DNA from: a virus
Taxonomy: Duplodnaviria; Caudoviricetes
IMG/VR virus record: IMGVR_UViG_3300030376_004411
Coordinates: 1 to 63,083 of that record
Length of the DNA stretch: 63,083 bases
Direction: 5' to 3' (one strand)
A program made the translations under genes and the position numbers. Numbering within the stretch: position 1 is the stretch's first letter; each line of letters begins with the position of its first letter. The notes under the pieces are model-generated. The model had not been told where the DNA came from. It ran no database searches and saw only the letters and a program-made list of their open reading frames with translations. This document shows, piece after piece, positions 24-63,083 of this stretch.

Positions 24-134
24 TCTCATCGCAGCAAAATATTCTCATCGCAGCAAAGATAGCGGGGGGCCCGGCACAACGCTGTGCTGCGTCGCAAGGT
101 TTCTCACAGCAGAACACCTTTCTCACGGCAAAAC
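24..134. repeat. Paired TCTCA-core direct repeats
   Basis: TCTCATCGCAGCAAA at 24 and 43; TTTCTCACAGCAGAAC at 100 and TTTCTCACGGCAAAAC at 119; both pairs 19 nt apart. Confidence 0.75.
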
Positions 135-9180: not shown

Positions 9181-10436
9181 ATGCTTACGAAAAATGTGTA
9201 ATAGGATTAAAACCACGCCTTAACAAAAAAGGTGTAGAGAATGCAGAGATTGTAGCTCAGAATATGTGCTCTATGTGGGCAGATAACAATGGCGAAGAAA
9301 AGGAATTCGGTGTTTCTAAATCAGATGAGACCCAAAAAACATTTGCTATGAATTTTGAATTTGATAAAGAAGCACTTAGTGTATCTAAAAAGGATACTGA
9401 AGATATGTGGGAATTCCCAGTTCGTGCTTTAACTTCTGGTCGTCACGATTATGAAGTTGAAGGAGAAGAACAAACTGTGTTTATAGAACCTAGTATACTT
9501 AAAGAAAGCTTGGAGAAGTTCAATGAACTACCAATATATTATACTCATCAAAGGACTCCTGAGGATTTACTTGGGAAGGCTATTAACCCTGAGATTGAAG
9601 AGATGGAAGACGGCAAGGTAGCAATATCTATGTTGGCTCAGATTTATGAACCAACAGCCAGAATGAAAGAAGTGATACAGAAAGTGGAAGACGGGGATAT
9701 TACTAACGTCAGTGTCGATTGGTTTTCAAAAGACGTTGATGTTATGGGCGATTCGTACGCGACAAATATCCGACCCGTAGAAGTCTCGTTTATAGACAAC
9801 GAGATAGCAACGCCCGTCTGTGGGGAATGTACGATTGACACGGAATGTGCAACACACGTATCAGAAAAAGAATTTGCAACCAAAGATGATTGTGGTTGTG
9901 GAGGGCACGACGAGAATTCGTGTGGTTGTGACCACGACGGTGAAGACAAAGAGGTCGATAATATGAGTGAGGAAGTTGTAAAAACAGAATCTGAAAAGAT
10001 AACAGAGAGAGAGTTTGCTTCAGTTAAGAAACAACTGGAAGATTTGACATCCAACCACTCCGAATTGGAGCAGAAGTACAATGATGCTTTGAATTCTATC
10101 GAAGAGTTTAAGACCGCAGAAGAAACCAGAAAGGCAGAGGAAGCTAAAAAGTTAAAAACAGCTTTAGTTAACAATGTCGTAAGTAAGGAAGTTCTTTTCG
10201 GAAAACTCAAAGAAGAATCCAAAGATGCCCGTACTGAAGAACTATTCGGTTGGGAAGACAACAAATTAACAGGTTTCTTTGAAGCATTAGAATCAATGCC
10301 TGAACCTGCCGAAACAGAAAAAACCTTCGGTAAGGGAATCGCAAAGGATTCAGAAGAAAAGGCTGTAGAAGCCGAACCTGAAGTAGAGAGAATGTTCTCT
10401 ATGATAGACGGAAAAATCCGTTTGAACAGGAAATAA
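9177..10436 (+). CDS. Prohead protease fused to scaffold-like coiled coil
   Basis: Between portal and capsid; PIYYTH, VSVDW, EVSFI protease-like motifs; acidic coiled-coil C-terminus. Confidence 0.8.
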   Translation: MNAYEKCVIGLKPRLNKKGVENAEIVAQNMCSMWADNNGEEKEFGVSKSDETQKTFAMNFEFDKEALSVSKKDTEDMWEFPVRALTSGRHDYEVEGEEQTVFIEPSILKESLEKFNELPIYYTHQRTPEDLLGKAINPEIEEMEDGKVAISMLAQIYEPTARMKEVIQKVEDGDITNVSVDWFSKDVDVMGDSYATNIRPVEVSFIDNEIATPVCGECTIDTECATHVSEKEFATKDDCGCGGHDENSCGCDHDGEDKEVDNMSEEVVKTESEKITEREFASVKKQLEDLTSNHSELEQKYNDALNSIEEFKTAEETRKAEEAKKLKTALVNNVVSKEVLFGKLKEESKDARTEELFGWEDNKLTGFFEALESMPEPAETEKTFGKGIAKDSEEKAVEAEPEVERMFSMIDGKIRLNRK

Positions 10437-10454: not shown

Positions 10455-10826
10455 ATGGCAACAGAAATATTAGTAAATGATGGTGGAGCACCAGCACGAA
10501 TATTACCATTTTTAATCCACGCTACTGTAGCAGCAGGAGACCCCCTACAGATACACTCTAACGGGAAAGTCAAACCAGCAGCAACCAGTGGAGCAGCCTG
10601 TGTTGGAGTAGCTTTAACAGCTGCATCAGGCTTGGATAATATGTGTAACGTGATAACTGGACACGGAGTCGTCGCTAACGTAAACGGACAAGGAAGCATT
10701 GTCGCAGGTTCTATCCTGTCAGCAGATGCAACTGGTAAGTTCGGTATTGCAGCAAGCGCCGACCAGAAAGAAGCTATTGCACTTGAGGCAATCAGCGGAG
10801 GAGTAGTGAAGGTCGTCCTTCTCTAA
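10455..10826 (+). CDS. Capsid decoration/cement protein
   Basis: Small Gly/Ala-rich beta protein (AGD..VGVA..G..GSIL..GK..AIALEA) directly before the capsid gene. Confidence 0.7.
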   Translation: MATEILVNDGGAPARILPFLIHATVAAGDPLQIHSNGKVKPAATSGAACVGVALTAASGLDNMCNVITGHGVVANVNGQGSIVAGSILSADATGKFGIAASADQKEAIALEAISGGVVKVVLL

Positions 10827-12028: not shown

Positions 12029-15000
12029 ATGCCACTATCACGAAAAATACTACCACACGGTAAAGCAAAAATACAGTCAGGAGTCTCAGGAGGCTCTAAT
12101 GTAACTAGTTTAAATTTAGATGGCACAACTTTACAATTAAATCAATCTAACAGTCAACCACAAAGGACTGTAAATTTAAACAGTCTTTCTGGTACACCCG
12201 CAGGTAATGATACAGAACTGCAATTTAACAACAATGGTTCATTTGGCGGAACAGATGACTTAAAGTGGGATGGTAGTAAACTAAAACTTGGAGATTCTGC
12301 TGATACTGGTAATTATTTCGAAGTTCAAGGTAGTGATTCTGAAAATACCTATGATGTCTTGGTTGGAAGAAGAAGATTCCCTAGAATATCTTTAAACGAC
12401 AGAGGCTCCTACACTATGCAGATATGGGCACTTGGTAGCGAATTAAGGTTCGGTACGAGCGCAGGTAGTAACACTACAGCTGCTTTTGTAGTAAGGAGTG
12501 GTAGTGTTGGGTCCGTAGCGACAGCTGGTGCATATACATATGGTGTCTTCAACGTAGGTACGTCTGATAGTATCAACTCTAGTAAGGTAACAATAGTAGA
12601 TACTGCGAAACCACTAACGCTAGCTTATGATGGTAGTAATTATGCATCTTTAAAAGTAAGTAGTGGAGGTGTGTTAACAGTAGCTACTAATATGGCTAAT
12701 GCAGGGGTAGCAGATAGATTTTTGTTTGATGGTAATCATTTTAGAGGAACTGATACTAACGCTCCTTCGATGCGTAACGAAACGCCTTCAGATACTAACC
12801 CCGTTTTTACTTTTAATAATGACGTTGATACAGGGATGGGTAGAGCTGCAGCTGATACTTTATCTTTTATTGCAGCAGGAGCTGAACAATTACGTATAGC
12901 AGATAATGTAATTACACTTGGTGATGGTGTGGTTTTAGCACCCCACGCAAGTGACAACTTTACAATTGACTCTCCAAATGGTATAATATTAGATGGTACA
13001 TCAGCAGCTAATGGTGTACAGTATCACGACGGCGGCCTTGAGATAATGAGAATTTCTAACTCAAGTAGTAATCCAGTTATCAGAACTATGGTAGATGCTA
13101 AGGATATGATTTTCCAACAGTTCGATGGTACTGAAATTGTAAGATTCAAAGATAATTTAGACGTTGAAGTTGCTGGTAATTTAAAAATAACTCCAGATAA
13201 TAAACTATACTTAGGAGATGACGAGTTTATAGATGTTAACACTTCTTCTTCACCAAACAGGATGGATTTTCATATAGCAAATCTTCCTCGATTACACTTA
13301 GATTCGGGTACATTATTTTCGGGACAATCTGGAGGCCCTTCGATGGACTTGACTCCAAGTTCTGGTATTGCAAATTATGGGTTCGTGGGTGACACTGACA
13401 CCGGTATGTCTAGAACGGGTGCAGATACACTTGTATTGATGACAGGTGGTACAAACGCAATCACAATAGATAGTAGTCAGAATGTTGTAATACCAGCTAA
13501 TTTGACGGTACAAGGAACAACAACTACAATCGACAGTACAACCCTCAGTGTTAAAGACAAGAACATTGAGATGGGTGTAGTTAGTAGTCCTACAGATGTA
13601 ACGGCTGATGGTGGAGGTATCACATTAAAAGGAACTACCGATAAAACATTTAACTGGGTAGATTCTACAGACAGTTGGACTGCATCAGAACATATTGAAC
13701 TTGCATCTGGTAAATCATTTAGGATTAACGGTAACAACGTTTTGAATCAAACAACTTTAGGTTCTACAGTTGTAGGTTCTTCATTAACAAGTGTTGGAAC
13801 ATTAACCGCTTTGACGGGAGGCACAGGAGACTTAAACTGGGATAGTAATACTCTATTTGTAGACTCTTCTGAAAACAGAGTAGGTATAGGTACAAATTCA
13901 CCAGATGTATTATTTGATGTTAGTGGGTCAGCGGTCATACAGAGCCTTCGTATTAATGCTAATGACGGTGACAGGATGCGATTGTTTAGAAGAGCTGATA
14001 ATGAAATGGTGATTGCTTCTGAGTCAGCATCACTATATTTAAATTCTGCATTTAATGGTATTTATTTTGAAGGAGACTCAAGTGCCGTAAAAATGCGTTT
14101 GACTGGTGATGGTAACTTAGGTATAGGCACAACTGGACCTGATAAACGACTTCATATACACGGTGCAACAGACACAGCTTTCAAAATGAGCAATGCAGGT
14201 ACTGGAGAAGGTGGTTCTGATGGTTTTGAAATACTTCAATCAAATACTGGAGAAATAGTACTTAAAAATAGAGAAAGTGCTGCTTTAAAATTTGACACAG
14301 CCGGTACTAATGCAATGACGATAGATAGTAGTCAAGTTACTACTTTTATTAACACCCCAGTTGTTGGAACAATGACTTCAAGTGATAACAGCACTAAAGC
14401 AGCTTCTACAGCTTTTGTTAAAGCTCAATCATACGGAACAGGAACCATTGGTGGTACAGCTACCTCAGGTCGGATTCCTTTTGGTGATGGAAATAACTCA
14501 ATAACAAGTGATGCTAATCTAACTTATAATGGAAGTAGTTTTGAAGTGTTAGTCACATCATCTATAGGACACGGTGGTACTAAAAGAACTAAATTTCAAC
14601 ATAACAACGAAGTTAATTATTATAGTGATGGTTCAGAAACTTCTGGTACAGTTTACTATCAATATAGAGGTGGAGATTTTAATATAGCTCGAAATGCTAT
14701 ACACGTTAAAGCTTATAATGACGGCTCTCGTCCGAGATATGTAGGTATAGGCACAACTTCACCTGAAAGAAAATTACACATAATGACAGCTAGTGCCGGT
14801 AGTCCGGGTTACAGTACTTATGCTAATATGATATTAGAATCTGATGACCATAGTTATTTTCAATTTTCTTCTCCATCTAACAAAGTACAAGGTATAAACT
14901 TTGGAGATGGAAACGATAATGCAGGTGCTATTTATTATGACCACGCATCTGATTATATGAGATTTTTTGCAGGTGCTTCAGAAAGAATGCGTATAGATTC

Positions 15001-18000
15001 TGCTGGTAAAGTAGGTATAGGCACAACTTCACCAAACAGTAAAATGACAGTTCAAGGTGACCTTGACATTCCACGCGGTTCTAGATTTAGAGCAGGTTCT
15101 ACTGACAGTAATCAAGGTATAGATATTTATCACAACAACGATGGTAGTTCATCATTTAATGGTAATGTCGTATTCGAAGGTAGGTCTTCTGGTGGAGATG
15201 TCGTTTTCCGTAATTTAGACCACGGGCAAGATTATAAATTTTACGCAGAGAACGATTCTGGTACAGAACAGTTAATAATGAAGATTGACGGTACTGAAGC
15301 AGCTGTGGGTATAGGAGAAGGAAGTACTGGATTAACTACAGCTAATGGTGCGTATTTACACGTTACTGGTTCTTCAAACTTACTTGCTAATTTCTTATCA
15401 TCAGATGGTATAGGAGAAATACGAGTAGGAGATAGTTCAAAGTATACTAGATTATTAACAGCTGGTAATCAATTTAAGATAATGCCTTTTGATGGTGTTG
15501 AGTTGATGGTACTTGATGGTAGTACAGAAAAGGTTGGTATAGGTACAAATGCACCCGGTGAAAAGCTAGATGTGAGAGGTAAAATATTAGTAGACCAGTA
15601 TTTAAGATTACAAAGAAACACAAGCACCAACGGATTAAATTTAACTGATAGTGGAGGTAACGCAGTCCCTGTGCACACTAGAGCAGGATTCTTTGGTGAT
15701 AGTTATTCAATGACTCCAGATATTGGTGAGGTTATATTATATAGTTCAACCACTGGTTCTTCAACTGCTACAGCTGGTATGGTTACATTCGCAAGTAGAA
15801 ATGATGCTGGAACTCATATACCTTATGCTGAAATAGAAGGTATAGCATTCGATGATACTGCTAGTGGCGAAGATGGTCATATAGTATTTAGAGTAGAAAA
15901 AGCTAGCACTATGACTGAACAGATGAGGTTAACAGAAACTGGATTAGGTATAGGCACAACTTCACCTGCTTATGAATTAGATGTTAGCTCTGGACATATG
16001 AACGCTGCAAGACTCTATCTAAATGACGCTAACAATTACATAATGGGTGACTCTGAAACTATGTATCTTAGAGCTCACAATGATATGTATTTCAATATAG
16101 ATACACCAAATGATTCTACAACTAGACATTTCATATGGAGAGCCAATACTTCTTCTGAAAAAATGAGATTAGGAGAAGATGGTATACTTGAAGTAAAATC
16201 TGGAGGTAAAGTAGGTATAGGTACAGCTGCACCTAATGTTGAATTAGATGTAGCTGGTGATGCAAGAATAAGAGGTTCCAATAAACTATACTTTGGAGAT
16301 ACAGATACTACAGAATATATATCTACTAACGGAACTGACGATTTAAGAATACACGCTTCAGACACTGTTTTATTTGATGGTGATGGTAAGAGTATATTTA
16401 GAACTCCTTATTTAGCTTTAGAAACTAGTGCAGCATCTGAAAAGATGAGATTCGATATAGATAATGGAAGATTTGGTATAGGCACAAATTCACCTTCTAC
16501 TAAATTAGATATCATAAGCACAACGGAACAAGTAAGGTTTGGTTATGACAGTAGTAATTACTTATCGTTTAATGTAGACAGTACTGGTAATACTGTAATA
16601 CAAGCTAAAACAGGTAACTTAGAATTAAAAACTGATACATCATCTCACGACGTTAGAGTTGATTCAAAAGGTAAATTTAGAGTAGATTTGGGAGATTCTA
16701 ATGGTGGGCACTATGCACGTATAAGAGGTACTAGTAACACCCCAGTATTGATGGCTAAGTCTAATGGTTTAGTAGGTATAGCTACAGAGTCACCCAATGA
16801 AACATTAACAGTTGAAGGAGTGTTATCTTTAGATGAAACTTCTGCTCCATCAGCTACTTCTGGTTATGGTAAAATATACGTTAAGTCTTCAGACAGTAAA
16901 CTATACTTTATGAATGATTCTGGAACTGAGACAGATTTAACAGCAGGAGGAGGAAGCAGTGTCAGTTTTGGTAGTGACAATCAAATACCATTTACTAATT
17001 CAGGGGGCGATGACTTCGATTATTCTGCTAATTTAACATTTGATGGAAGTACTCTTATCACTGACGCTGATATTCGAATATTAGATGGTGAAAAATTATT
17101 ACTTGGTACTGACAGTAATTTTCAAATTTATGGTAGTGCCGGTTCTACAAAATACATAACTACACTTTCAGAACAATTATTAATATGGAATCAAGATTCT
17201 TCTAGTGCACCAATCAAATTACAAGCTACAGATACATCTAACGGTATTCAATTTAATATTGCAGGAACTGAAAAAGGTAGATTTACATCTACAGGTTTAG
17301 GTATAGGTACAACTGCACCTTCTTACAAATTAGATGTTAATGGGGACGCAAATGTTTCAAGTGTTCTATACTTAGGTGATTCCGATACTAAATTATATAG
17401 AAGTTCTAATGATTTATATATAAGAGCTACTTCTGATATACTTTTAAATGACACAGGTGGTAATGTAGGTGTAGGAATAGACCCTACTTCTAAATTACAC
17501 GTCAAAGGTGAATTAGATATTCAAAGTGGTAATCAAACTATTCTTATGGGAGCTGGTAATAGTTCAACATCTAGAAATGATAATGCTCTAAAACTAGCTA
17601 GAGTTGGATTAGCACATTATGAGAATGATGAAGCAGCAGCAGCTATGATATATGCATCTTCAGATGGAACTGATAATGCAGTAGCTATCGGTGGTGGAAC
17701 ATCTGGTATGAATGCAGCCACTAAATTACAATTTTTTACAGCTGCTAATGATACAACTACTGAAGGCACAGAAAGAATGCGTATAGATTCAGCTGGTAAA
17801 GTAGGTATAGGTACATCTGCACCTAACAATACTTTAGAAGTAGCTGGGGTTATTCGTGGTACCAATTATATATGGCAAAAACAAGATGGTTCACCCGGAA
17901 TATTGGTTGGGAATGGTGGTAATGCTGACATTTACTATGATGGTACTGATATGCATATTAATTCCCAAAGAGGCGGTTCTGGTGATTTATTAATTAATAC

Positions 18001-18628
18001 TGGTGGTGGTAATGTAGGTATAGGCACAAATTCACCTGCTGATAAATTAAATATAAACACCGGAGTAGGAACATTCGATTTTAGAGATTATAATATGACT
18101 TATAGTACCTCTTTAGGTATTAGAGCAGAAGCTGGATACTTAGGATTGGTTACAGAAGCAGCTGATGATGTATTTATTTCTACTAGCGGATTTGCTAATA
18201 AAAGATTAGTTGTAAAATCAGATGGTGATATAGGTATAGGCACAACTTCACCTTCTACTAAATTAAATATTGTTGGAACTGGATATGGAGGTAATACCAC
18301 TGGTTCTGCACTATTTCAACTATATGGTACAGATACTGTAGGACCCACTTTAACTTTTAGGAACAATCAATCAGAATATGGTTCTATATATTATGGAGAT
18401 ACTGGCGCTTGGATACCCCAAGGTACAATGGGATTTATTCAACACAGGGATGGTGCCTCTTCAGATGTAAAAATGGTTATAGCGTCTGGTGGTAAAGTAG
18501 GTATAGGTACAACTACACCAGCCCAATATTTACACGTAAAATCTGGTGATACTGACCAAGTATTATACGATTCGCTACTGATACATTTAAATTTTATACT
18601 GATTCAGGATATTCTAACAATCCTTTAA
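12029..18628 (+). CDS. Giant fibre/receptor-binding protein with GIGTxxP repeats; frameshifted near the 3' end
   Basis: About 16 (V/L)GIGTxxP..L modules, Gly/Ser/Thr rich; last ~19 aa look out of frame. Confidence 0.85.
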   Translation: MPLSRKILPHGKAKIQSGVSGGSNVTSLNLDGTTLQLNQSNSQPQRTVNLNSLSGTPAGNDTELQFNNNGSFGGTDDLKWDGSKLKLGDSADTGNYFEVQGSDSENTYDVLVGRRRFPRISLNDRGSYTMQIWALGSELRFGTSAGSNTTAAFVVRSGSVGSVATAGAYTYGVFNVGTSDSINSSKVTIVDTAKPLTLAYDGSNYASLKVSSGGVLTVATNMANAGVADRFLFDGNHFRGTDTNAPSMRNETPSDTNPVFTFNNDVDTGMGRAAADTLSFIAAGAEQLRIADNVITLGDGVVLAPHASDNFTIDSPNGIILDGTSAANGVQYHDGGLEIMRISNSSSNPVIRTMVDAKDMIFQQFDGTEIVRFKDNLDVEVAGNLKITPDNKLYLGDDEFIDVNTSSSPNRMDFHIANLPRLHLDSGTLFSGQSGGPSMDLTPSSGIANYGFVGDTDTGMSRTGADTLVLMTGGTNAITIDSSQNVVIPANLTVQGTTTTIDSTTLSVKDKNIEMGVVSSPTDVTADGGGITLKGTTDKTFNWVDSTDSWTASEHIELASGKSFRINGNNVLNQTTLGSTVVGSSLTSVGTLTALTGGTGDLNWDSNTLFVDSSENRVGIGTNSPDVLFDVSGSAVIQSLRINANDGDRMRLFRRADNEMVIASESASLYLNSAFNGIYFEGDSSAVKMRLTGDGNLGIGTTGPDKRLHIHGATDTAFKMSNAGTGEGGSDGFEILQSNTGEIVLKNRESAALKFDTAGTNAMTIDSSQVTTFINTPVVGTMTSSDNSTKAASTAFVKAQSYGTGTIGGTATSGRIPFGDGNNSITSDANLTYNGSSFEVLVTSSIGHGGTKRTKFQHNNEVNYYSDGSETSGTVYYQYRGGDFNIARNAIHVKAYNDGSRPRYVGIGTTSPERKLHIMTASAGSPGYSTYANMILESDDHSYFQFSSPSNKVQGINFGDGNDNAGAIYYDHASDYMRFFAGASERMRIDSAGKVGIGTTSPNSKMTVQGDLDIPRGSRFRAGSTDSNQGIDIYHNNDGSSSFNGNVVFEGRSSGGDVVFRNLDHGQDYKFYAENDSGTEQLIMKIDGTEAAVGIGEGSTGLTTANGAYLHVTGSSNLLANFLSSDGIGEIRVGDSSKYTRLLTAGNQFKIMPFDGVELMVLDGSTEKVGIGTNAPGEKLDVRGKILVDQYLRLQRNTSTNGLNLTDSGGNAVPVHTRAGFFGDSYSMTPDIGEVILYSSTTGSSTATAGMVTFASRNDAGTHIPYAEIEGIAFDDTASGEDGHIVFRVEKASTMTEQMRLTETGLGIGTTSPAYELDVSSGHMNAARLYLNDANNYIMGDSETMYLRAHNDMYFNIDTPNDSTTRHFIWRANTSSEKMRLGEDGILEVKSGGKVGIGTAAPNVELDVAGDARIRGSNKLYFGDTDTTEYISTNGTDDLRIHASDTVLFDGDGKSIFRTPYLALETSAASEKMRFDIDNGRFGIGTNSPSTKLDIISTTEQVRFGYDSSNYLSFNVDSTGNTVIQAKTGNLELKTDTSSHDVRVDSKGKFRVDLGDSNGGHYARIRGTSNTPVLMAKSNGLVGIATESPNETLTVEGVLSLDETSAPSATSGYGKIYVKSSDSKLYFMNDSGTETDLTAGGGSSVSFGSDNQIPFTNSGGDDFDYSANLTFDGSTLITDADIRILDGEKLLLGTDSNFQIYGSAGSTKYITTLSEQLLIWNQDSSSAPIKLQATDTSNGIQFNIAGTEKGRFTSTGLGIGTTAPSYKLDVNGDANVSSVLYLGDSDTKLYRSSNDLYIRATSDILLNDTGGNVGVGIDPTSKLHVKGELDIQSGNQTILMGAGNSSTSRNDNALKLARVGLAHYENDEAAAAMIYASSDGTDNAVAIGGGTSGMNAATKLQFFTAANDTTTEGTERMRIDSAGKVGIGTSAPNNTLEVAGVIRGTNYIWQKQDGSPGILVGNGGNADIYYDGTDMHINSQRGGSGDLLINTGGGNVGIGTNSPADKLNINTGVGTFDFRDYNMTYSTSLGIRAEAGYLGLVTEAADDVFISTSGFANKRLVVKSDGDIGIGTTSPSTKLNIVGTGYGGNTTGSALFQLYGTDTVGPTLTFRNNQSEYGSIYYGDTGAWIPQGTMGFIQHRDGASSDVKMVIASGGKVGIGTTTPAQYLHVKSGDTDQVLYDSLLIHLNFILIQDILTIL

Positions 18629-39340: not shown

Positions 39341-41230
39341 TTATATTTCACACTTGTCACCGACACAAGCAAACTCAGATTTACCCTGAGTATTGTCTTC
39401 TAGTTCGTAATGAGACAACTGTGTATAGTCAATTAGGGGGTGTTCCTTTATAAGCCTTTCGTAGGTATGGACGTCTATTTCTTCATATGGAGCTAATTTA
39501 TACTTACCACCGTCGTATGGTAAGAATGACACTCCGTTAATAATATCCCAGTTTTGATACACCCAATTACCTACCTCGAACCATTCATCATCTCTAACAT
39601 ATACAGTCATACTAGCATTGTGTTCACACCAGTTGTGTTGTAAATTTTTGTAATGTTTGAGTTGGTCTAACGCAGTAACATCTTTACGTGTAACGCAATC
39701 TTCTGGTGATTTTACTGGAAACTCTAACACCCACGTCGTAGCTGTCTCAGCATCTTGACCATTTTCTGGATTACACGGTACACCTGCTTCTTTCATCAGT
39801 TTGAAAAGAGGGTCACGAGCTGCTATCCTATAACGACGTATATAGTATTGAGAATATCGGGGATGTACACCGGATGCAGAGTCTACAAGTTGTGATACGG
39901 TCCCTGATGGCTTTACACAAGTAGTAGCTGCTGGCATTTTAGTACCTAATATACCTGATGCTTTACGTGCAATACGTAATACACGACTTTTAAGAGCCGC
40001 TAATGCCTCCGAAGTTAATATATGGTGGTTATCCATTTGACCAGTCAAACTAACTCCTAGCAGCGCTTCTACGTCACAGTTCTTTTTCCACTCTTTTCTA
40101 AGATATGGAAAGTCTGTGAACGAACTTTGTATAACACCAAGCCATGTTGCCGTTTCGACTTTGTCTAACAAAGAGTCTAAGTCATCACCATCTCTTACGA
40201 CTACTTCCGAAAGGTTACAGAATTGCATATCTCGCAACATAATTTCTCCACAAGGATTAGTTCCTTGTATTTTAGGAGCGTAACGTCTGGCGGGTGCTTT
40301 GTTTTGAGCAGCTTGTAAATTAAATATACCTCTCTCTCCAGTTCCTGACTTAGCTAATGCACCCCACTCAACTAAGAAATCTGCAGCTGAGGGCTTTTCT
40401 CTAAATACTGCACTGTTATTTGCCATAGCTCGTTTGATAGGGAAAGGCCACTCTTTTGCATGACGCAAGTCTTGGTCATCAAGGTCACTCAAAGATATTT
40501 GTGAGCTGCGTCTAACTCCACCTACAACCACAATTTCTGCAATTTGATTACATATATCATGAGCTTCGATTGTTGTAAGCTGTCGACCTTGGGCATTATG
40601 CATAGTTTCACGTATAAAATCATGTAACTTTACTAGTGGTTGTGGACCTGATGCTCGACCTCCCATTGTAAGTAAACGAGCACCCTCCAGTCTTATAGCA
40701 CTATAATCAAAATAAATATTCTGACCTTCATATAAACTTCCCATTAAAGTTTTTACAGAATCAGCCCAACCAGCTTTTGAATCATCAATCAAAACTTTAG
40801 CTAGTCCCTGTCCTGACTTGATTTCTGGGACGCTAGGTAATTTCTTAACCTCTTCAGCTTCAACTGAGAAACCAAAACCAGTACCACACATTAGGACATA
40901 CAGACACTCAGCAAAAGCTTCTACAGAATTTATCTTAGCAAAGGAGCAATTATAAATGCAAGTGTTATCTGCTTTAGCTGCAGGACCTGCTGCCCAGAGG
41001 AATCGCATAGAAGGCATGACACCAAACTCTGTCATATACTTTCTAATCTTACTAATAGTTTTGTCTGGTATTTCTGGTCTTTCTGAAATTATAAAACCAA
41101 TAAATCTTTCAATTGTCTCAGGCCAATTTTCTCTTCTGGCCTCTTCTTCTAGCCAACGTGAATACGTTCTTTTATATATAAATTCTGCTACTTCGTTTTT
41201 AAACATCTTACCACTCCTTTGCGGTTTCAT
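39341..41230 (-). CDS. nrdJ: Class II (B12-dependent) ribonucleotide reductase
   Basis: YNCSF, VVVGGVRRS, TNPCGEI, CNLSEV, CVKPSGTVS, C-terminal CVGDKCEI. Confidence 0.95.
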   Translation of the reverse strand: MKPQRSGKMFKNEVAEFIYKRTYSRWLEEEARRENWPETIERFIGFIISERPEIPDKTISKIRKYMTEFGVMPSMRFLWAAGPAAKADNTCIYNCSFAKINSVEAFAECLYVLMCGTGFGFSVEAEEVKKLPSVPEIKSGQGLAKVLIDDSKAGWADSVKTLMGSLYEGQNIYFDYSAIRLEGARLLTMGGRASGPQPLVKLHDFIRETMHNAQGRQLTTIEAHDICNQIAEIVVVGGVRRSSQISLSDLDDQDLRHAKEWPFPIKRAMANNSAVFREKPSAADFLVEWGALAKSGTGERGIFNLQAAQNKAPARRYAPKIQGTNPCGEIMLRDMQFCNLSEVVVRDGDDLDSLLDKVETATWLGVIQSSFTDFPYLRKEWKKNCDVEALLGVSLTGQMDNHHILTSEALAALKSRVLRIARKASGILGTKMPAATTCVKPSGTVSQLVDSASGVHPRYSQYYIRRYRIAARDPLFKLMKEAGVPCNPENGQDAETATTWVLEFPVKSPEDCVTRKDVTALDQLKHYKNLQHNWCEHNASMTVYVRDDEWFEVGNWVYQNWDIINGVSFLPYDGGKYKLAPYEEIDVHTYERLIKEHPLIDYTQLSHYELEDNTQGKSEFACVGDKCEI

Positions 41231-57114: not shown

Positions 57115-59208
57115 CTAGACCTTTATTACCCTCCTGATGATTTTACTTATCTTAGTTGGTAACTCATTGATGTCGTTAACTAGTAGGTAGTTAGAAAACA
57201 TCTCAGCCATACTACGTTCACGTGCACCACTGATACCAACCTGTATGATACTCCAACCTTGTCCCTCTAAGTGTTTTACACACTTCTTAGTATGAGGAAC
57301 ACCGACTGACCATCTATACTTGTCTGCTGATGGTTCACCATCTGAGATAACAATCATTAGTTTGTTGCTACCCATTGATGGTGACTCAGCTTTGACTCTC
57401 TCGGCTGATGCTAAGAGAGCCATACCGTCTCTGTTCTCTGCTCTAGCTTCCATTGAACCAATGGCTTTCGTATCTGACTGATAAGATGGTGACCAATATA
57501 CTGACATATTGGTTTCACCTTCCTTACCCCATGTGTAGCCATCAGCTGTGTGGCCAAAGACCCACAGGTTGAGAGCCTGATTGTCTTTAAGTGCCTCACG
57601 CAAAGCTATTGCAGTTTGTCTGGCTTTGTCCATCTTCCATGAACCCATACTGCCTGACTCGTCAACTAAGAGACACACATCCAATGGTTTGTCTTCATCA
57701 ACGATGACATTTTTAAATAGGTCGGGTCGACCGAGAGGTATTTTATGTAACATCTTTTTGTCTAGTTTGCCTCTTCGTTGATTGCGAATGGTGTGTATCT
57801 TAGTATCACCATAAAGTTGTATTCTACGTTTGAGTTGACCGATAGCTGATTTCATTTTTGTAACGGTCTCATCATATTTTTGTGAGTGGTGGTCGGAAGC
57901 GTGTTGGTTACGCCATGTAACCTTAGTACCTTGTCTCAGACCGAGAGCGCGACTACTGTCCCACTCATCCTCAGAGTATTCACTGTCAGCTAAGTCTCGG
58001 ATAGCCTTGTCTAGTCTGTCACTGATACTCTCGGAGTCAGCTGAATAGTCAGCTAGTTTGGCTCCGGACTTATCGATAGCATCTCGGAGTGCTGTCTCAC
58101 CACTGTATCTGTCAGTGGTCTCAGCTTCTTTACGTTCTTGTTCTATCAGTCTGTCTCTAATATTCTTTAAGTGTTCGTCGTTCATCTCGATGTCATCCTT
58201 AGACCAGCCTTCCATTAACTCATCCATACGAGCCTCAGCACGTTCAATGATTTCTTCTTCGCTTACATCCTTTCTCTTCGATGCTTCTTCCTTAGCTAAC
58301 TGATATATGTATTCGTATATAGACTGAACTGCAACTAGTGTTGACTCTCTGTCTACCAAAGCATCCTTCAAAGCACGAGCAAAGAACTGAATGTGTCTAG
58401 CGTGTCTCTTCTTACGTTCATCTGAGATAGTAGAGGGAAACCTCACCATAGCTAACAATGTATTCAGTACATCAGCTATGACATTACCTTTGATGGTTCC
58501 TATGTCATGCTTAGCAAAGAAGTGTTCTTTTACTTTGTCGATGTATGTGACGTAACCAGCATGAGTCTTAGCTAACTGAGATTCGATGTACTCATCTTCG
58601 ATAATGTTACCGATACTATGTAGTAAATCAGTCTGTGCGTTGCTGAGACGTTTGTCATAAGAATATTTCTTTTGCCATTTGACTAATGGTTGAGTATGAA
58701 CTAAGTGTAACTTCTCATGTATAGAGAGACCAGCTACAATATCTAAGTTGGTGTCACTAGTCTTGATGAGAGTACCGTCAACATACAGTGCACCGGTTCT
58801 CATATTAGAATAGTTTCTACCCTCAGTTGCGAAGTTAAGTGTATGTTTCACAGTTGGGTCGACTACTTTACACAGAGAATCTAAATGTCTTTTGTGTTTG
58901 AGCATACGAGCTGATGATGAACTCTCATTGGAAGACCAACCACCCCATGCTGAGGCTGTTGCACTACCAACACTACCCCATGTGTACGAACCACCTCTAC
59001 CCCACACATCACCGTGTGCTGAGATAGATGGTGCGGGTGAACTGTATACTTTAGCTACTGATGGAGTGAGGAAAGGGTCAATAGTATTGTATTTGACACC
59101 ACACTCTGTACAACATCCGTGGTCATCAGCATCAGTCCAATCATCACAGGCCTGACAGAAGTCATCTGTGTCCTCAGCCCAATCGTCTACTGAAGTTTTG
59201 TAATCCAT
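57115..59208 (-). CDS. vWA-domain protein with HExxH motif (CobT-like MoxR partner)
   Basis: IHEKLH, NIIEDEYIE, RRGKLD, MIDAS LLVDESGSM, VISDGEP. Confidence 0.88.
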   Translation of the reverse strand: MDYKTSVDDWAEDTDDFCQACDDWTDADDHGCCTECGVKYNTIDPFLTPSVAKVYSSPAPSISAHGDVWGRGGSYTWGSVGSATASAWGGWSSNESSSSARMLKHKRHLDSLCKVVDPTVKHTLNFATEGRNYSNMRTGALYVDGTLIKTSDTNLDIVAGLSIHEKLHLVHTQPLVKWQKKYSYDKRLSNAQTDLLHSIGNIIEDEYIESQLAKTHAGYVTYIDKVKEHFFAKHDIGTIKGNVIADVLNTLLAMVRFPSTISDERKKRHARHIQFFARALKDALVDRESTLVAVQSIYEYIYQLAKEEASKRKDVSEEEIIERAEARMDELMEGWSKDDIEMNDEHLKNIRDRLIEQERKEAETTDRYSGETALRDAIDKSGAKLADYSADSESISDRLDKAIRDLADSEYSEDEWDSSRALGLRQGTKVTWRNQHASDHHSQKYDETVTKMKSAIGQLKRRIQLYGDTKIHTIRNQRRGKLDKKMLHKIPLGRPDLFKNVIVDEDKPLDVCLLVDESGSMGSWKMDKARQTAIALREALKDNQALNLWVFGHTADGYTWGKEGETNMSVYWSPSYQSDTKAIGSMEARAENRDGMALLASAERVKAESPSMGSNKLMIVISDGEPSADKYRWSVGVPHTKKCVKHLEGQGWSIIQVGISGARERSMAEMFSNYLLVNDINELPTKISKIIRRVIKV

Positions 59209-59567
59209 GTGTCCACCTCACTTAATAAATCTTTATCCTCAGCTCTGAACTTAAACTCAAAGCACTTAAGGCTTCTCTTAGCTGAACCTACTACACACTT
59301 GTATATGAATAAGTCCTCAGTCGATACTATACCATGAGCCATCTCTGTCATCTGATTGATAGGCATAGTTGGTCTCTCGGGTATGATTAGGTCCTCATCT
59401 TGTAGTAATCTACGTTTGTATGCACCGATGTGTCTACCATTGACCTCAGTGTCGGGGAATACCGACTTGAGAATCTTAGCACACTGAGCTGGTTTGTATC
59501 CGTTAAGGATTAACAACTTAGTCAACTGATGCCAATAGGTATGCTTTCTCTTTTTAACTCTAACCAT
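59187..59567 (-). CDS. Hypothetical basic protein
   Basis: Between the AAA and vWA genes; TAG-ATG adjacency. Confidence 0.65.
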   Translation of the reverse strand: MVRVKKRKHTYWHQLTKLLILNGYKPAQCAKILKSVFPDTEVNGRHIGAYKRRLLQDEDLIIPERPTMPINQMTEMAHGIVSTEDLFIYKCVVGSAKRSLKCFEFKFRAEDKDLLSEVDTWITKLQ

Positions 59568-60749
59568 CTACTCACCCATTGATTGAATAACTTGTATTAT
59601 ACGAACTCTCTCAGTATCGTCACCACCCTGAATAGGGTAGAAAGGTAAACAGGTATGCTTCAATGCATCCTCTAAACTCATTCCATCGACAACTAACTCA
59701 GCTGATGCTAAACACATACGTGTTGATACTGCTGTAGCTAGTTCATCTGATTTGTGTAAGTCACGTACTCTCTTAGCAAAGTCTACAATCTTATCAGCAT
59801 TGTAGTCACTGAGCTGAGGATTACGATTCTGTAATAGTTCCTTTTCTTTCTGTGGAGGGAGATACTCTAGTTCGTATATACCTCCGGTAAATCTATCTTT
59901 CCATGCACGGTCTAAGTCATGAGACGCACCGAGATACTCTCGGCCGATGTTAGCTGTAGCATAAAAGAAGGCACCTTTATGGACTGAAACACTGTCAGCA
60001 TCCTCAGACTCATCAAGAGCCAAATACTTCTGACCATCCAATACCGGCATGAGAATGTTAGCTAAGTCACCTGTTCGGTCACGTGTAACCTCATCCAGCA
60101 TAATAAATGAATCAGCTTGTATTGCATTAACAAACCGAGAAGGTTTGAACCATGTACCTGATTCTTTGTCGTACTTAGTATCACCCAGCAACTTAGCTGA
60201 GGGATTCATAGTATCACCAAAGTTGAAAGAGTAGAACTCTTTTGCTGTAATCTCGGCTAGTATCTTACCGAGACTAGACTTACCACACCCTGATGGTCCT
60301 GTGATAAGAATGTTCTTACCACGGAATATGTTTCTCAACATAGTATAGAATGTGCTATCATCAGCAAACTTAAACTCTTCGGGTACATTTACTGAACCTC
60401 TTAGTTTGGACATAACTGTCTCTTTTTCCACTTCAACGGGTGGAGCCTCTTCTGGCGTGGGACTGTCTCGGTCGAATAGACTGTCGAGTCCTCCATGTGT
60501 GTCGGTCTTTTCCATTATTTCCTCATGTTCGGAAGCCTTTATAAGCTTGCCGGTTGCATCCTCAGTGTAGCCTGTTAGCCACTCAGTTGGGGTTTCTATT
60601 CCAGCTGTGGCTTTGGCTTCTTCAACTATCTCTGTCATCTCTTCCTCAGTATATTTCTTTAACATCTTAGTTGGCTCTCCTGCGCCTGATGAGAGTGCGG
60701 TCGACCCTACTTCGGTCGTAACCATATCTTCTCTCACCTGAGACACCAC
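59568..60749 (-). CDS. MoxR/CbbQ/CobS-like AAA+ ATPase
   Basis: GPSGCGKS, IMLDEVTR, ATANIG..Y, LDRAWKDRF, STR. Confidence 0.9.
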   Translation of the reverse strand: MVSQVREDMVTTEVGSTALSSGAGEPTKMLKKYTEEEMTEIVEEAKATAGIETPTEWLTGYTEDATGKLIKASEHEEIMEKTDTHGGLDSLFDRDSPTPEEAPPVEVEKETVMSKLRGSVNVPEEFKFADDSTFYTMLRNIFRGKNILITGPSGCGKSSLGKILAEITAKEFYSFNFGDTMNPSAKLLGDTKYDKESGTWFKPSRFVNAIQADSFIMLDEVTRDRTGDLANILMPVLDGQKYLALDESEDADSVSVHKGAFFYATANIGREYLGASHDLDRAWKDRFTGGIYELEYLPPQKEKELLQNRNPQLSDYNADKIVDFAKRVRDLHKSDELATAVSTRMCLASAELVVDGMSLEDALKHTCLPFYPIQGGDDTERVRIIQVIQSMGE

Positions 60750-61118: not shown

Positions 61119-61435
61119 AGTGAACCTCTCTTAGTTAACCATTGGTCAACACCTACTTCATGTATATATGAAACGGTGTCACTGTAGTTCCCGAAGGTGA
61201 GACATTGGTGTGGCTTCGGAGCGTGTTCGAAATACTTTTGAGTCCTAGCATTTCTCTTAGCTCGTAGTTGTGAGCCATCTCTGTTCGGGGTAGCACTTAA
61301 CAACTGAGATAGTTGTTTGGCTGTCAAGCTTTTTAATTGATTAGCGATTGCGTCGATGTCGGTCATAGTCATCAAATCTACATCGTATACGCCCTTTATA
61401 AAGGTTTCGGCTCTTGAACTAAGAGCCCCGCACAA
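61115..61435 (-). CDS. Hypothetical protein
   Basis: Start probably at an internal Met near 61366-61372, downstream of TTTATAAA at ~61395. Confidence 0.6.
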   Translation of the reverse strand: MCGALSSRAETFIKGVYDVDLMTMTDIDAIANQLKSLTAKQLSQLLSATPNRDGSQLRAKRNARTQKYFEHAPKPHQCLTFGNYSDTVSYIHEVGVDQWLTKRGSL

Positions 61436-61742
61436 AATACAGGCTGAGACAAAAAACGGGGGGCTTTTTCAAGCAAAACCTTATATAGTTCGTACTCCCT
61501 ATATTAACTATATTAAGAATATAGCTTAGTTATGCTATACTAAGACCTTTACTTATATCTTAGTAGAGCATGCTTTATAGAGAATGGTTAGTAAGGCTTA
61601 GCTTAATTGTCTTAGTAGAGCATTCTTAGTAGAGCATAATATAGGCTAAAGATACTATCCCTATACTTTCTTCGAACGAACACAACTGAACCTAAACTGG
61701 TTCTAGTTTGGGATGAGCTTTAAAGCTTTCGAACCAACCTCT

Positions 61743-62001
61743 ACTAAGCATTTTCTCATTCTGGCCTACCGTAAGTGCTCAATTGAGCTCAGCTCTACTG
61801 AGAACAAGTTTCTCACCTCGCCCTACCGTGCTTTGGTTCTGGTTTGAACCTGAACTGAGACTGGGCTGTTAATTTCTCATCTGCGCTGTCCGTTAGGTTT
61901 TGGTTTGTAGAGCATGAACTGAGAAGTTGTTTTCTCACGGAGCCTTACGGCTCTATTGAGCAAAAAGAAATGGGGGCTGAGTTGAGCTAAGCTGAGAAGT
62001 T
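61743..62001. repeat. Degenerate ~60-bp tandem repeats with CTGAGA..TTTCTCA cores
   Basis: TTCTCA ends at 61758, 61815, 61879 and 61937; the last three are preceded by ACTGAGA. Confidence 0.65.
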
Positions 62002-62032
62002 GCGAAGCGGTTTCCGCACGTGTGGAAAAATT

Positions 62033-62360
62033 AAAAAAAATTATTAAAGGTGTTAGCCCCCCGACTTAAATAACTGCGCAGTCATGGCGTTTCCTATCTC
62101 GTTATTTCGAATATACGTTAACGATAGGTCAAGGGGGCGTAACTATAAGGTTGGGTAGGAGGATTTATGTATACCTCCAAAGGGTTTATGCCACTACAGT
62201 GTAGAACCCTTACCAGTTTTGCATTCCTCCAGCAGTCGCTTCTTGGTTTGCGCAGTCCTGTGCCTTAGTCCGTGGCGGACTTGTTCGGCCATACCCGATT
62301 ACGGAAGAGCTACTTCCATAAATATAAGGTGGGCAGTTTTCTGAGATGCCCAGCTGCTCG
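62033..62360 (-). ncRNA. Candidate structured non-coding RNA (unidentified)
   Basis: Nested helices in a GC-richer gap with no long ORF on the transcribed strand; ends in a T8 run. Confidence 0.45.
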
Positions 62361-62366
62361 TTTTAC

Positions 62367-62693
62367 TTACTTAAGAAGTCCTGCTTTTTTCATAGCAGTC
62401 TTCAAATCAGCCTCACTCATTCTACCCATAGCGGATACAAGAGAGTCAACTGTTGGTGCTCGTCCTTCAACTTTTCGTTTGCTTTGATAACTGTGAGTTG
62501 CCGAGGCAACCATAGATGCAAACTTATCATTGTTGTGTAACACATCTGAGATGGCTACAAGAGTGTCATACTTTACACCGGTAGGGTATCGGTCGGATTT
62601 GCCGACCTTAGTGATACCAATGTGGTCTAGTATGTCGCTAACTACACCTTCAGACTTTGGTGCCCAAAGGTAATCCATTTTTGCTTTAGTCAT
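62367..62693 (-). CDS. Hypothetical early protein
   Basis: 108 aa; TTAAATA box ~22 nt upstream. Confidence 0.7.
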   Translation of the reverse strand: MTKAKMDYLWAPKSEGVVSDILDHIGITKVGKSDRYPTGVKYDTLVAISDVLHNNDKFASMVASATHSYQSKRKVEGRAPTVDSLVSAMGRMSEADLKTAMKKAGLLK

Positions 62694-62723
62694 ACAATAC
62701 CAATAGAGTTACTCTATTTAAGC

Positions 62724-62960
62724 TTAACCCCTGCTTATTACTTGTCTTAGTTGTAAGTCCTTGAACAGGTCAGGATTAGACATTCTAATCTCAGCAGCGA
62801 TAGCTTTATGTGCACCTCTGCCTCTGACTCCTACAGGAATAACCTCCTTGTATAATCCATACTTACCGTACGGAGTCGTGCCGATTTCTACAAAGTAGTC
62901 GACAGTCTGGCGGCCGTTCTTCCACGGAAGAGCGGTTTTAGTTTGAACTGCTTGGCTCAT
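62724..62960 (-). CDS. Hypothetical early protein
   Basis: 78 aa; leaderless-type promoter upstream. Confidence 0.7.
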   Translation of the reverse strand: MSQAVQTKTALPWKNGRQTVDYFVEIGTTPYGKYGLYKEVIPVGVRGRGAHKAIAAEIRMSNPDLFKDLQLRQVISRG

Positions 62961-62981
62961 GTATTACCAAAGACACCACCC

Positions 62982-62998
62982 TATATAAAGCTTTTTTC
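62982..62998 (-). promoter_or_regulatory. BRE/TATA promoter
   Basis: GAAAAAAGCTTTATATA ending 21 nt before the ATG at 62960. Confidence 0.7.
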
Positions 62999-63083
62999 AC
63001 ACGAGTGGAAAATTAGATTGGCAACTTCACCCAAGGCTCTAATTAGAATTTAAAGCCTACCTTGAGGAGCGGTTGCCACAAGG

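Follow-up and report, generated by a model that had tools for sequence, protein, structure and literature searches.

Does the minus strand at nucleotides 62033–62360 of the virus record IMGVR_UViG_3300030376_004411 (IMG/VR) give rise to one novel structured RNA of ~320 nt, as an original prediction made from the sequence had proposed, or to a series of separable elements? The entire record of 63,083 bp (class linear, ~90% complete; further referred to as the window) was analysed, and the stretch in question is situated ~1 kb from its right end, 3′ of two small genes encoding proteins of 78 and 108 amino acids (aa). All of the helices listed in the prediction were found in the sequence at their proposed place on the minus strand, and related loci keep them via compensating changes. 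A 174-nt core, consisting of the GGAAG hairpin and the multibranch domain of the prediction, corresponds to the manA motif (Rfam RF01745), so that the core of the proposed RNA has been known since 2010, and what is new is its carrier and its position. Neither is the stretch a single unit, since a hairpin upstream of manA stays in place in loci without manA, and since manA and the second predicted domain (further referred to as dom2) occur separately in kin. On balance, we read the locus as a succession of separable modules with which an operon ends.

The manA element (62148–62321, minus strand), in which a P1 hairpin leads into a multi-helix junction with GGGUA/UACCC as its closing helix, matched RF01745 over model positions 1–192 of 192 with a score of 67.8 bits (gathering score 55.2; E 3.9e-15). 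No other Rfam match passed its curated cut-off anywhere in the window, and searching the record itself led to an identical outcome. The helices of the manA model coincide with the predicted pairings GGAAG/CTTCC, AGTCCG/CGGACT, AAGGGTT/AACCCTT and GGAGG/CCTCC, together with the GGGTA/TACCC closing helix. Other hallmarks of the family were found as well, in that the P1 hairpin precedes a multi-helix junction with a 5-bp closing helix and four inner hairpin arms, and in that the conserved manA loop GGUAUACAnnAAUCC and the CUGUAG hairpin are both present in the window. Free-energy folding of 62148–62321 recovered the architecture of the model (–55 kcal/mol, z –2.70, with 0/200 shuffles as good). 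When the whole 334 nt were compared with shuffled sequence, the stability of the fold proved modest (z –1.97, 3/100 shuffles), whereas manA and dom2 on their own scored more strongly. The prediction had also set the RNA apart from tRNA, signal recognition particle (SRP) RNA, RNase P and introns, in agreement with which a tRNA/tmRNA scan returned none and no such Rfam family was matched.

Covariation of manA was assessed on an alignment of 31 distinct close homologues (A4), in which 97.9% of 1602 pair cells were standard, both sides had changed in 24 of 52 pairs, and all 11 manA helices were 89–100% paired. Sliding the partners by 1–3 columns left 36–43% paired, and not one of 500 shuffles reached the observed pairing or covariation score. 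The same alignment placed the window in a subtype of 10 homologues in which the variable-arm pairs 81–118, 83–117 and 84–116 are unformed, these pairs being formed with compensating changes in the other 21. Many unpaired bases of manA are moreover invariant, in the virus family as well as in distant phages. The 32-codon open reading frame (ORF) that had been noted across part of the structure does exist (62194–62292), but it is not conserved, being intact in 8 of 31 distinct homologues, stopped at codon 4 in 17, and 24, 49 or 50 codons long in the other 6. This lack of conservation supports the idea of a structured, non-coding minus-strand RNA.

In addition to its helices, manA features a contact between loops. 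The loops of its last two hairpins are complementary (NUGUA with UACAN), with UGUA/UACA being invariant among the 31 family homologues and with the fifth pair covarying (A–U in 18, C–G in 6, U–A in 5, and a gap in 2). Among 41 distinct manA copies from other viral contigs, this fifth pair was A–U in 23 and C–G in 16, while the 2 copies falling outside the search pattern revealed C with G by eye. The window itself has four of the five pairs because its loop lacks one base, as is the case in one other sequence. These data show a conserved pairing of 4–5 bp between these two loops. The complementarity had been labelled 'pseudoknot?' in a figure legend of 2010 (PMC2864571), and the family alignment now adds clean covariation for this contact. 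Cryo-electron microscopy of manA RNAs in vitro has revealed closed 8-, 10- and 60-mers, held together by kissing loops and a GNRA-receptor contact, and the accessible text of this preprint reports no in-vivo function (10.64898/2026.07.01.735769). The scaffold and kissing ideas voiced in the original prediction fit this kissing-loop assembly of manA, and are in this way indirectly echoed.

The second module, dom2 (62052–62143, minus strand), is a three-way junction of 92 nt. It is closed by a long GC-rich stem and bears an arm CCUAUC/GAUAGG, which holds the conserved internal loop GUUANCG..CGA, as well as a palindromic hairpin. It folds as described in the prediction, with GTTA-GCCCCC-GAC pairing to GTC-GGGGGC-TAAC around the inner CCTATC/GATAGG (–28.6 kcal/mol, z –2.73, 2/200 shuffles as good). 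As none of the four Rfam matches at E≤10 in 61400–63083 overlaps 62052–62143, dom2 is apparently an uncatalogued compact fold. The covariance model (R1), built from 23 dom2 sequences, detected one copy in the window (62040–62152, 121.8 bits) and 42 copies in 96 sources. Two pattern scans of viral contigs for dom2 outside the virus family, screened with R1, returned family members only, and an nhmmer search of 74 other manA loci found no dom2.

An alignment of dom2 by MAFFT and RNAalifold gave just 14 pairs because the G-run was misaligned, and was replaced by a covariance-model alignment (A5). In the 32 distinct rows of A5, 94.3% was paired and 15/31 pairs had changed on both sides, compared to 33–43% pairing in slid controls. 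G–U pairs were encountered on the minus strand only (in 16 rows at 70–81, in 11 at 21–91, in 4 at 69–82 and in 4 at 15–97), suggesting that dom2 is a minus-strand RNA rather than a DNA-level palindrome. The unpaired junction bases GUUA.CG, CGA and UAA are invariant.

The third arm of dom2 is the hairpin G-ACUGCGCAGU-U (62072–62083, minus strand), which comparison with kin revealed to be self-complementary through its centre. In every version of dom2 this hairpin is a perfect palindrome, and eight forms of seven sequence types were found in kin (ACTGCGCAGT and its extension GACTGCGCAGTC, CTGGCGCCAG, TACCGGCGCCGGTA, TACTAGCGCTAGTA, TACCACCGGTGGTA, GCGGGCCCGC and CCGGGCCCGG), centred on GCGC, CCGG or GGCC. 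Its centre pairs were complementary in all 31 rows with letters (GC in 27 and CG in 4 for the one, CG in 28 and GC in 3 for the other). Because a 4-nt hairpin loop has no need of self-complementarity, this pattern fits a pairing between two copies of dom2. RNAcofold dimer energies, calculated without a control, were near-constant at –19.9 kcal/mol for all 31 sequences and were not used. The TGCGCA-centred hairpin, self-complementary in all kin, is a further indirect echo of the kissing idea, and it may matter for the organisation of manA bodies.

The prediction had additionally pointed to a 9-mer, GACTGCGCA, as a possible link between the two domains. This 9-mer indeed occurs once in each, at 62249–62257 and at 62075–62083, and nowhere else in the window, with 1 of 100 shuffles giving two matches. 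According to the A4 alignment, the manA copy (GACUGCGCA; 62249–62257, minus strand) is located in the variable arm, the middle of which is unpaired here. However, both modules carry the 9-mer in 1 of 28 distinct two-module loci, being the window alone, so that it is not a conserved link.

The gene encoding the 108-aa protein (62367–62693, minus strand; an ORF) served as a handle to collect related loci. Relatives of this protein were found in 13 loci in viral contigs, and an alignment of relatives (A2; 81% mean column identity) was used to query metagenome contigs, from which the best 80 of 170 relatives were used. This resulted in 93 downstream stretches, 78 of which measured at least 500 nt, with 62 of these being distinct, and the presence of modules in these 62 loci was scored by nhmmer with family profiles. 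Directly behind the 108-aa gene, manA exceeded the Rfam cut-off in 11 of the 13 viral-contig loci, the remaining two being a stretch that is cut off (L013) and a divergent manA copy (L006). Among the 62 distinct loci, 29 carried manA and dom2, 20 manA only, 2 dom2 only and 6 neither, while 5 carried a divergent manA (2 with and 3 without dom2), some of these divergent copies scoring 41–61 bits in Rfam. Two of the loci, L008 and L009, are near-identical, except that dom2 is missing from L008. These counts show that manA and dom2 occur independently of each other.

The slot of manA and dom2 can also be occupied by other elements. In six distinct loci it contains an unrelated element of ~92 nt (element X), and in L112, L113 and L170, which carry this element, the 300 nt beyond a conserved palindrome that follows the slot match the window at 297/300 positions. 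The nested fold of element X was no better than that of shuffles (z +0.59), and it may therefore be pseudoknotted or unstructured. Neither element X nor the L157 locus corresponded to an Rfam family. Element X was observed at L112:2361–2452, and also in L113, L114, L117, L147, L153 and L170.

Four loci contain an extra module, element Y, between manA and dom2, for which no Rfam match was found. At L149:966–1040 (and also in L171, L172 and L180) it appeared as a small three-way junction GGGGUGAGA...UCUCACCCC with a fold z of –3.05. At L097:300–590, ~250 nt of hairpin-rich sequence stand in manA's place immediately before a dom2 copy, and yielded no Rfam match at E≤1. In L157, L172, L180 and L097, dom2 or element Y is immediately preceded by a recurrent small hairpin module, GCCCUGU-GAUGA-ACAGGGC and then CCUUACA, and the modules in the arrays of these loci tend to end in a CCUUAYA linker.

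The modules are accompanied by a number of flanking elements. What had been taken for a small pseudoknot upstream of manA finds support only as a plain hairpin conserved in kin (62330–62353, minus strand; CUGGGCA/UGCCCA with an 11-nt loop). A hairpin stands right after the stop of the 108-aa gene in 62/62 distinct loci. Of these loci, 40 and 19 fall into two non-homologous classes and 3 have variants, and class 1 features the three compensating stems UGGGCA/UGCCCA, UGAGCA/UGCUCA and UGGGUA/UACCCA (fold z –1.40 for the window hairpin). Since it persists in the element X loci, which are without manA, this hairpin is to be assigned to the 3′ end of the 108-aa gene. A linker box, CCUUAUAUUUA (62319–62329, minus strand), lies at the 5′ flank of manA, and a second copy of this box, CCUUAUAGUUA (62140–62150, minus strand; repeat family D20), forms both the 3′ flank of manA and the 5′ flank of dom2. 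These two flanks are the only exact occurrences of the pattern CCTTAYANTTA in the whole window, and the box is missing from the element-X loci. The linker boxes may be processing sites or cassette junctions. The linker box was also considered as a sigma-70 promoter and was rejected as such on the basis of its sequence, since it lacks a –35 element and since transcription starting ~7 nt past the TATATT-like box would cut into P1.

The T8 run of the prediction was found at 62033–62040 (minus strand) and, as a U-tract, is the probable 3′ end of the transcript. At least five T within 25 nt of the last module were present in 57/62 distinct loci, this last module being dom2 (32/33), manA (19/23) or element X (6/6). 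Next comes the conserved palindrome TTCCACACGTGCGGAA (62012–62027, minus strand), of the form TTCCAC-N4-GYGGAA/GTGAAA with a T-run before it, which has a second copy at 62995–63010 ahead of the 78-aa gene. Its two sites, a count reached by 0/100 shuffles, bracket the unit formed by the 78-aa gene, the 108-aa gene and the RNA, and most kin keep the palindrome after the T-run, at times as a tandem pair. Its score as an RNA hairpin is low (z about –1), so that it is probably a DNA-level site, and may be an operator or another DNA site.

Beyond the RNA, the next minus-strand ORF of at least 60 aa starts at 61435, ~600 nt past the T8 run, and the ORF-poor 600 nt in between are filled with repeats of ~60 nt that are conserved in kin. 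About five such units, each composed of [AG]TGAGAAA, a variable spacer and CTCAG, were seen at 61750–61990 (minus strand), and two exact GTGAGAAA copies are additionally present at the opposite end of the record (100–126, minus strand). These units might act as iterons or form a series of small hairpins. Three to four TCTTAGTAGAGCAT-type repeats, with a spacing of 52 and 14 nt (families D1 and D2), were additionally observed at 61557–61651 (plus-strand coordinates).

The context of manA elsewhere was derived from a comparison set of 74 loci from other viral contigs (L015–L088), found by the manA loop pattern. On the 3′ side of manA these contigs carried a gene start 25–45 nt on, a tRNA gene (often abutting) or a classic terminator, a hairpin with a T-run being frequent, and in some of them (e.g. 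L026 and L050) the terminator was followed by a promoter of the TTGACA-N17-TATACT type. On the 5′ side, a regular expression detected a promoter TTGACA-N15–19-TAnnnT ending just before P1 in 38 of 49 distinct manA copies, and the other 11 revealed TTGACA with TATAAATA or CATAAT by eye, so that manA in these phages looks like a separate transcription unit. In the window's virus family, the same promoter pattern was found before manA in 0/31 sequences, and a promoter consensus scan called no minus-strand promoter near manA in the window. Nor does the window copy occupy a position in a 5′ untranslated region (5′UTR), which is the typical rather than the obligatory context of manA and from which the other phage copies with a tRNA or terminator behind them depart as well.

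Taken together, we consider it somewhat probable that separable modules are strung together here at the end of an operon, with manA as a co-transcribed, free-acting structural RNA. At the tail of this small, early-side operon, the hairpin at the 3′ end of the 108-aa gene, manA, the optional dom2 and the U-tract would follow each other in that order. Because a promoter of the kind found before manA in other phages is absent, we infer that the modules share a transcript with the two genes upstream of them (78-aa and 108-aa), and this transcript would come to an end at the U-tract. The manA RNA would then be a free structural RNA, presumably self-assembling via loop–loop contacts as other manA RNAs do in vitro, rather than a riboswitch that controls a downstream gene. 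For its part, dom2 would provide a stable 3′ end in the form of a stem close to the terminator, and two copies of it may pair via the palindromic loop. The position of manA, its optional neighbours and its cassette-like replacement argue against a gene-specific riboswitch and for a free-acting structural RNA.

A number of points weigh against this interpretation. The loop–loop pairing cannot be assigned from sequence to an intra- or an intermolecular contact, and the likeness to the manA cages, with their contacts L5–L7′, L8–L9′ and L3–L8′, is one at the level of the family, the assembly reported in the preprint being in vitro and of other manA sequences only (10.64898/2026.07.01.735769). Co-transcription, the 3′ end at the U-tract and the 'early' timing are all inferred. 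In the window, 11 nt separate the dom2 stem from the start of the U-tract, compared to 2–4 nt in most kin, and a consensus scan for promoters and terminators did not call dom2 and the T8 run as a terminator. The pairing figures of dom2 come from an alignment that was fitted to the covariance model, which favours the pairs of that model, the two centre pairs being outside it, and a mutational process copying one arm onto the other could yield a perfect dom2 palindrome as well. Finally, the discoverers of manA proposed it to be a riboswitch (PMC2864571), and it may still bind a ligand.

As an alternative, manA might sense a metabolite, with dom2 (or the manA closing helix where dom2 is missing) and the U-tract serving as an expression platform that gates read-through to the downstream repeats and genes, such as a CobS/CobT-like pair and others. 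The riboswitch proposal of 2010 drew on the complex conserved junction of manA and its frequent 5′UTR position (PMC2864571), and both the U-tract behind the element in 57/62 loci and the hairpin with T-run often found 3′ of other phage manA copies could suit such a platform. Nevertheless, we regard this explanation as unlikely for the locus. The dom2 stem and the 3′ strand of manA do not overlap, so that no competing fold is evident, and dom2 is optional, with an unrelated element occupying the same slot in near-identical genomes that have the same downstream DNA. What follows the element is moreover ~600 nt of repeats and not a gene start. A literature search on manA using cyanophage, riboswitch and orphan riboswitch found no ligand report, and the assemblies in the preprint are, as far as its accessible text goes, RNA-only (10.64898/2026.07.01.735769).

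The readiness with which unrelated modules replace one another in the slot, behind the genes and before the U-tract, might in turn indicate a generic protection of 3′ ends, in which any stable structure keeps 3′ exonucleases away from the early mRNA of the 78-aa and 108-aa genes and terminates transcription, with manA, dom2 and element X being interchangeable for that alone. The separate hairpin that already stands behind the gene in all loci would fit in with such a function. Yet the invariant unpaired bases and the loop–loop pairing of manA, retained even in distant phages with their own manA promoter, exceed the needs of a stabiliser, and dom2 too keeps its invariant junction bases, which makes this explanation improbable in our view.

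It is very improbable that the region acts at the level of DNA, as palindromes and repeats for replication, packaging or protein binding on double- or single-stranded DNA near the genome end, with the RNA folds as by-products. The distance of ~1 kb to the end of a linear record, the conserved DNA palindrome that flanks the region, the ~60-nt repeats that follow it and the perfect DNA palindrome of the dom2 hairpin, with its centres GCGC, CCGG or GGCC, are in keeping with such elements. However, the helix G–U pairs that are tolerated on the minus strand only are A–C mismatches on the opposite strand, the strand logic is the same in manA, itself a curated RNA family, and the dom2 palindrome varies freely in sequence without losing its pairing, as a site recognised by a protein would not. 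The reading of the original prediction, in which one novel ~320-nt RNA has two domains touching through a common GACUGCGCA, is hardly tenable, for although this 9-mer is present twice in the window and nowhere else, with its manA copy in a stretch that is unpaired in the window's subtype, it marks both modules in a single one of the 28 loci, the modules occur separately, and the core is a known family.

Starting from the favoured reading of a separable module string with a free-acting manA RNA, a bolder proposal can be formulated, which we put forward tentatively and with some doubt. According to this proposal, dom2 would be an undescribed class of viral RNA module whose G/C-palindrome loop pairs two copies, linking manA assemblies or transcripts into larger bodies when fused to manA, and this virus family would use the slot behind the 108-aa gene as a cassette site for swapping free-acting RNAs (manA subtypes, dom2, element X and element Y), bounded by the CCUUAYA linker. 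If true, the slot would be the RNA counterpart of a gene-cassette hotspot. The locus is in itself informative for manA, which is found here behind a gene and with a U-tract end, and which is swapped for unrelated modules between genomes that are 99% identical next door.

The virus that carries this locus encodes a large terminase subunit (with TerL domains), a portal, a capsid, a tape-measure-type tail protein and a family-B DNA polymerase, next to a B12-dependent ribonucleotide reductase and a CobS/CobT-like pair, with the minus strand carrying genes from ~39 kb to the right end. Identity of its terminase and polymerase to those of any cultured phage was ≤25%, and when the 1.7-kb region was searched as DNA against the records of cultured phages, it gave 0 matches. 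The 108-aa protein had no PHROG or NCBIfam match, and 0 relatives of it were found in 185,579 species genomes. The genes for the adenosylcobalamin-dependent ribonucleotide reductase, the CobS-like AAA ATPase and the CobT-like protein (vWA) were located at 39341–41230 and 57115–60749 (minus strand); a cobalamin-linked gene set of this kind is better known from cyanophages. An ORF of 2199 aa without Pfam match was observed directly 3′ of the capsid gene (12029–18628, plus strand).

When compared with known systems, the window copy clearly takes after the manA motif, which Weinberg et al. 2010 (PMC2864571) defined as a riboswitch candidate from marine metagenomes, T4-like cyanophages and two gamma-proteobacteria. 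It has the same P1 hairpin, junction closed by GGGnG/CnCCC, loop GGUAUACAnnAAUCC and CUGUAG hairpin, and shares the marine viral setting. Unlike the known carriers, the window represents an uncultivated, tailed 63-kb virus with a tape-measure gene and not a T4-like cyanophage, and unlike typical manA, its copy lies behind a gene and before a U-tract instead of before a gene start or tRNA, is without a sigma-70-type promoter in front, and has the middle of its variable arm unpaired, as is characteristic of its subtype. With the cage-forming manA RNAs it has the family in common, and the window's family features covarying loop–loop pairing (10.64898/2026.07.01.735769).

The dom2 module resembles intrinsic terminators in that a GC-rich closing stem is followed by a U-rich tract, but differs from them in that this stem closes off 70 nt of conserved junction, in which unpaired bases are invariant, and in that the T-run is also present without dom2. 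Palindromic loops drive dimerisation in hairpins such as the retroviral dimerisation initiation site, and the phi29 packaging RNA is a three-way junction with intermolecular loop pairing. What dom2, as a candidate for dimerisation, shares with those RNAs is a 4-nt G/C palindromic loop, kept via two independent double changes, a three-way junction and a location near the genome end, whereas it has no sequence or family relation to them, is optional within its own virus family, and belongs to a virus with a large terminase subunit. Lastly, the cyanophage S-CREM1 has been described to carry a non-coding RNA cluster wcaG-manA-abiF, with manA at 10215–10429 and abiF at 10531–10567 (PMC9964418). While its neighbours wcaG and abiF are Rfam families, unlike dom2, element X and element Y, which match none, S-CREM1 and the window's family are alike in that further small structured RNAs lie no more than a few hundred bases from manA.

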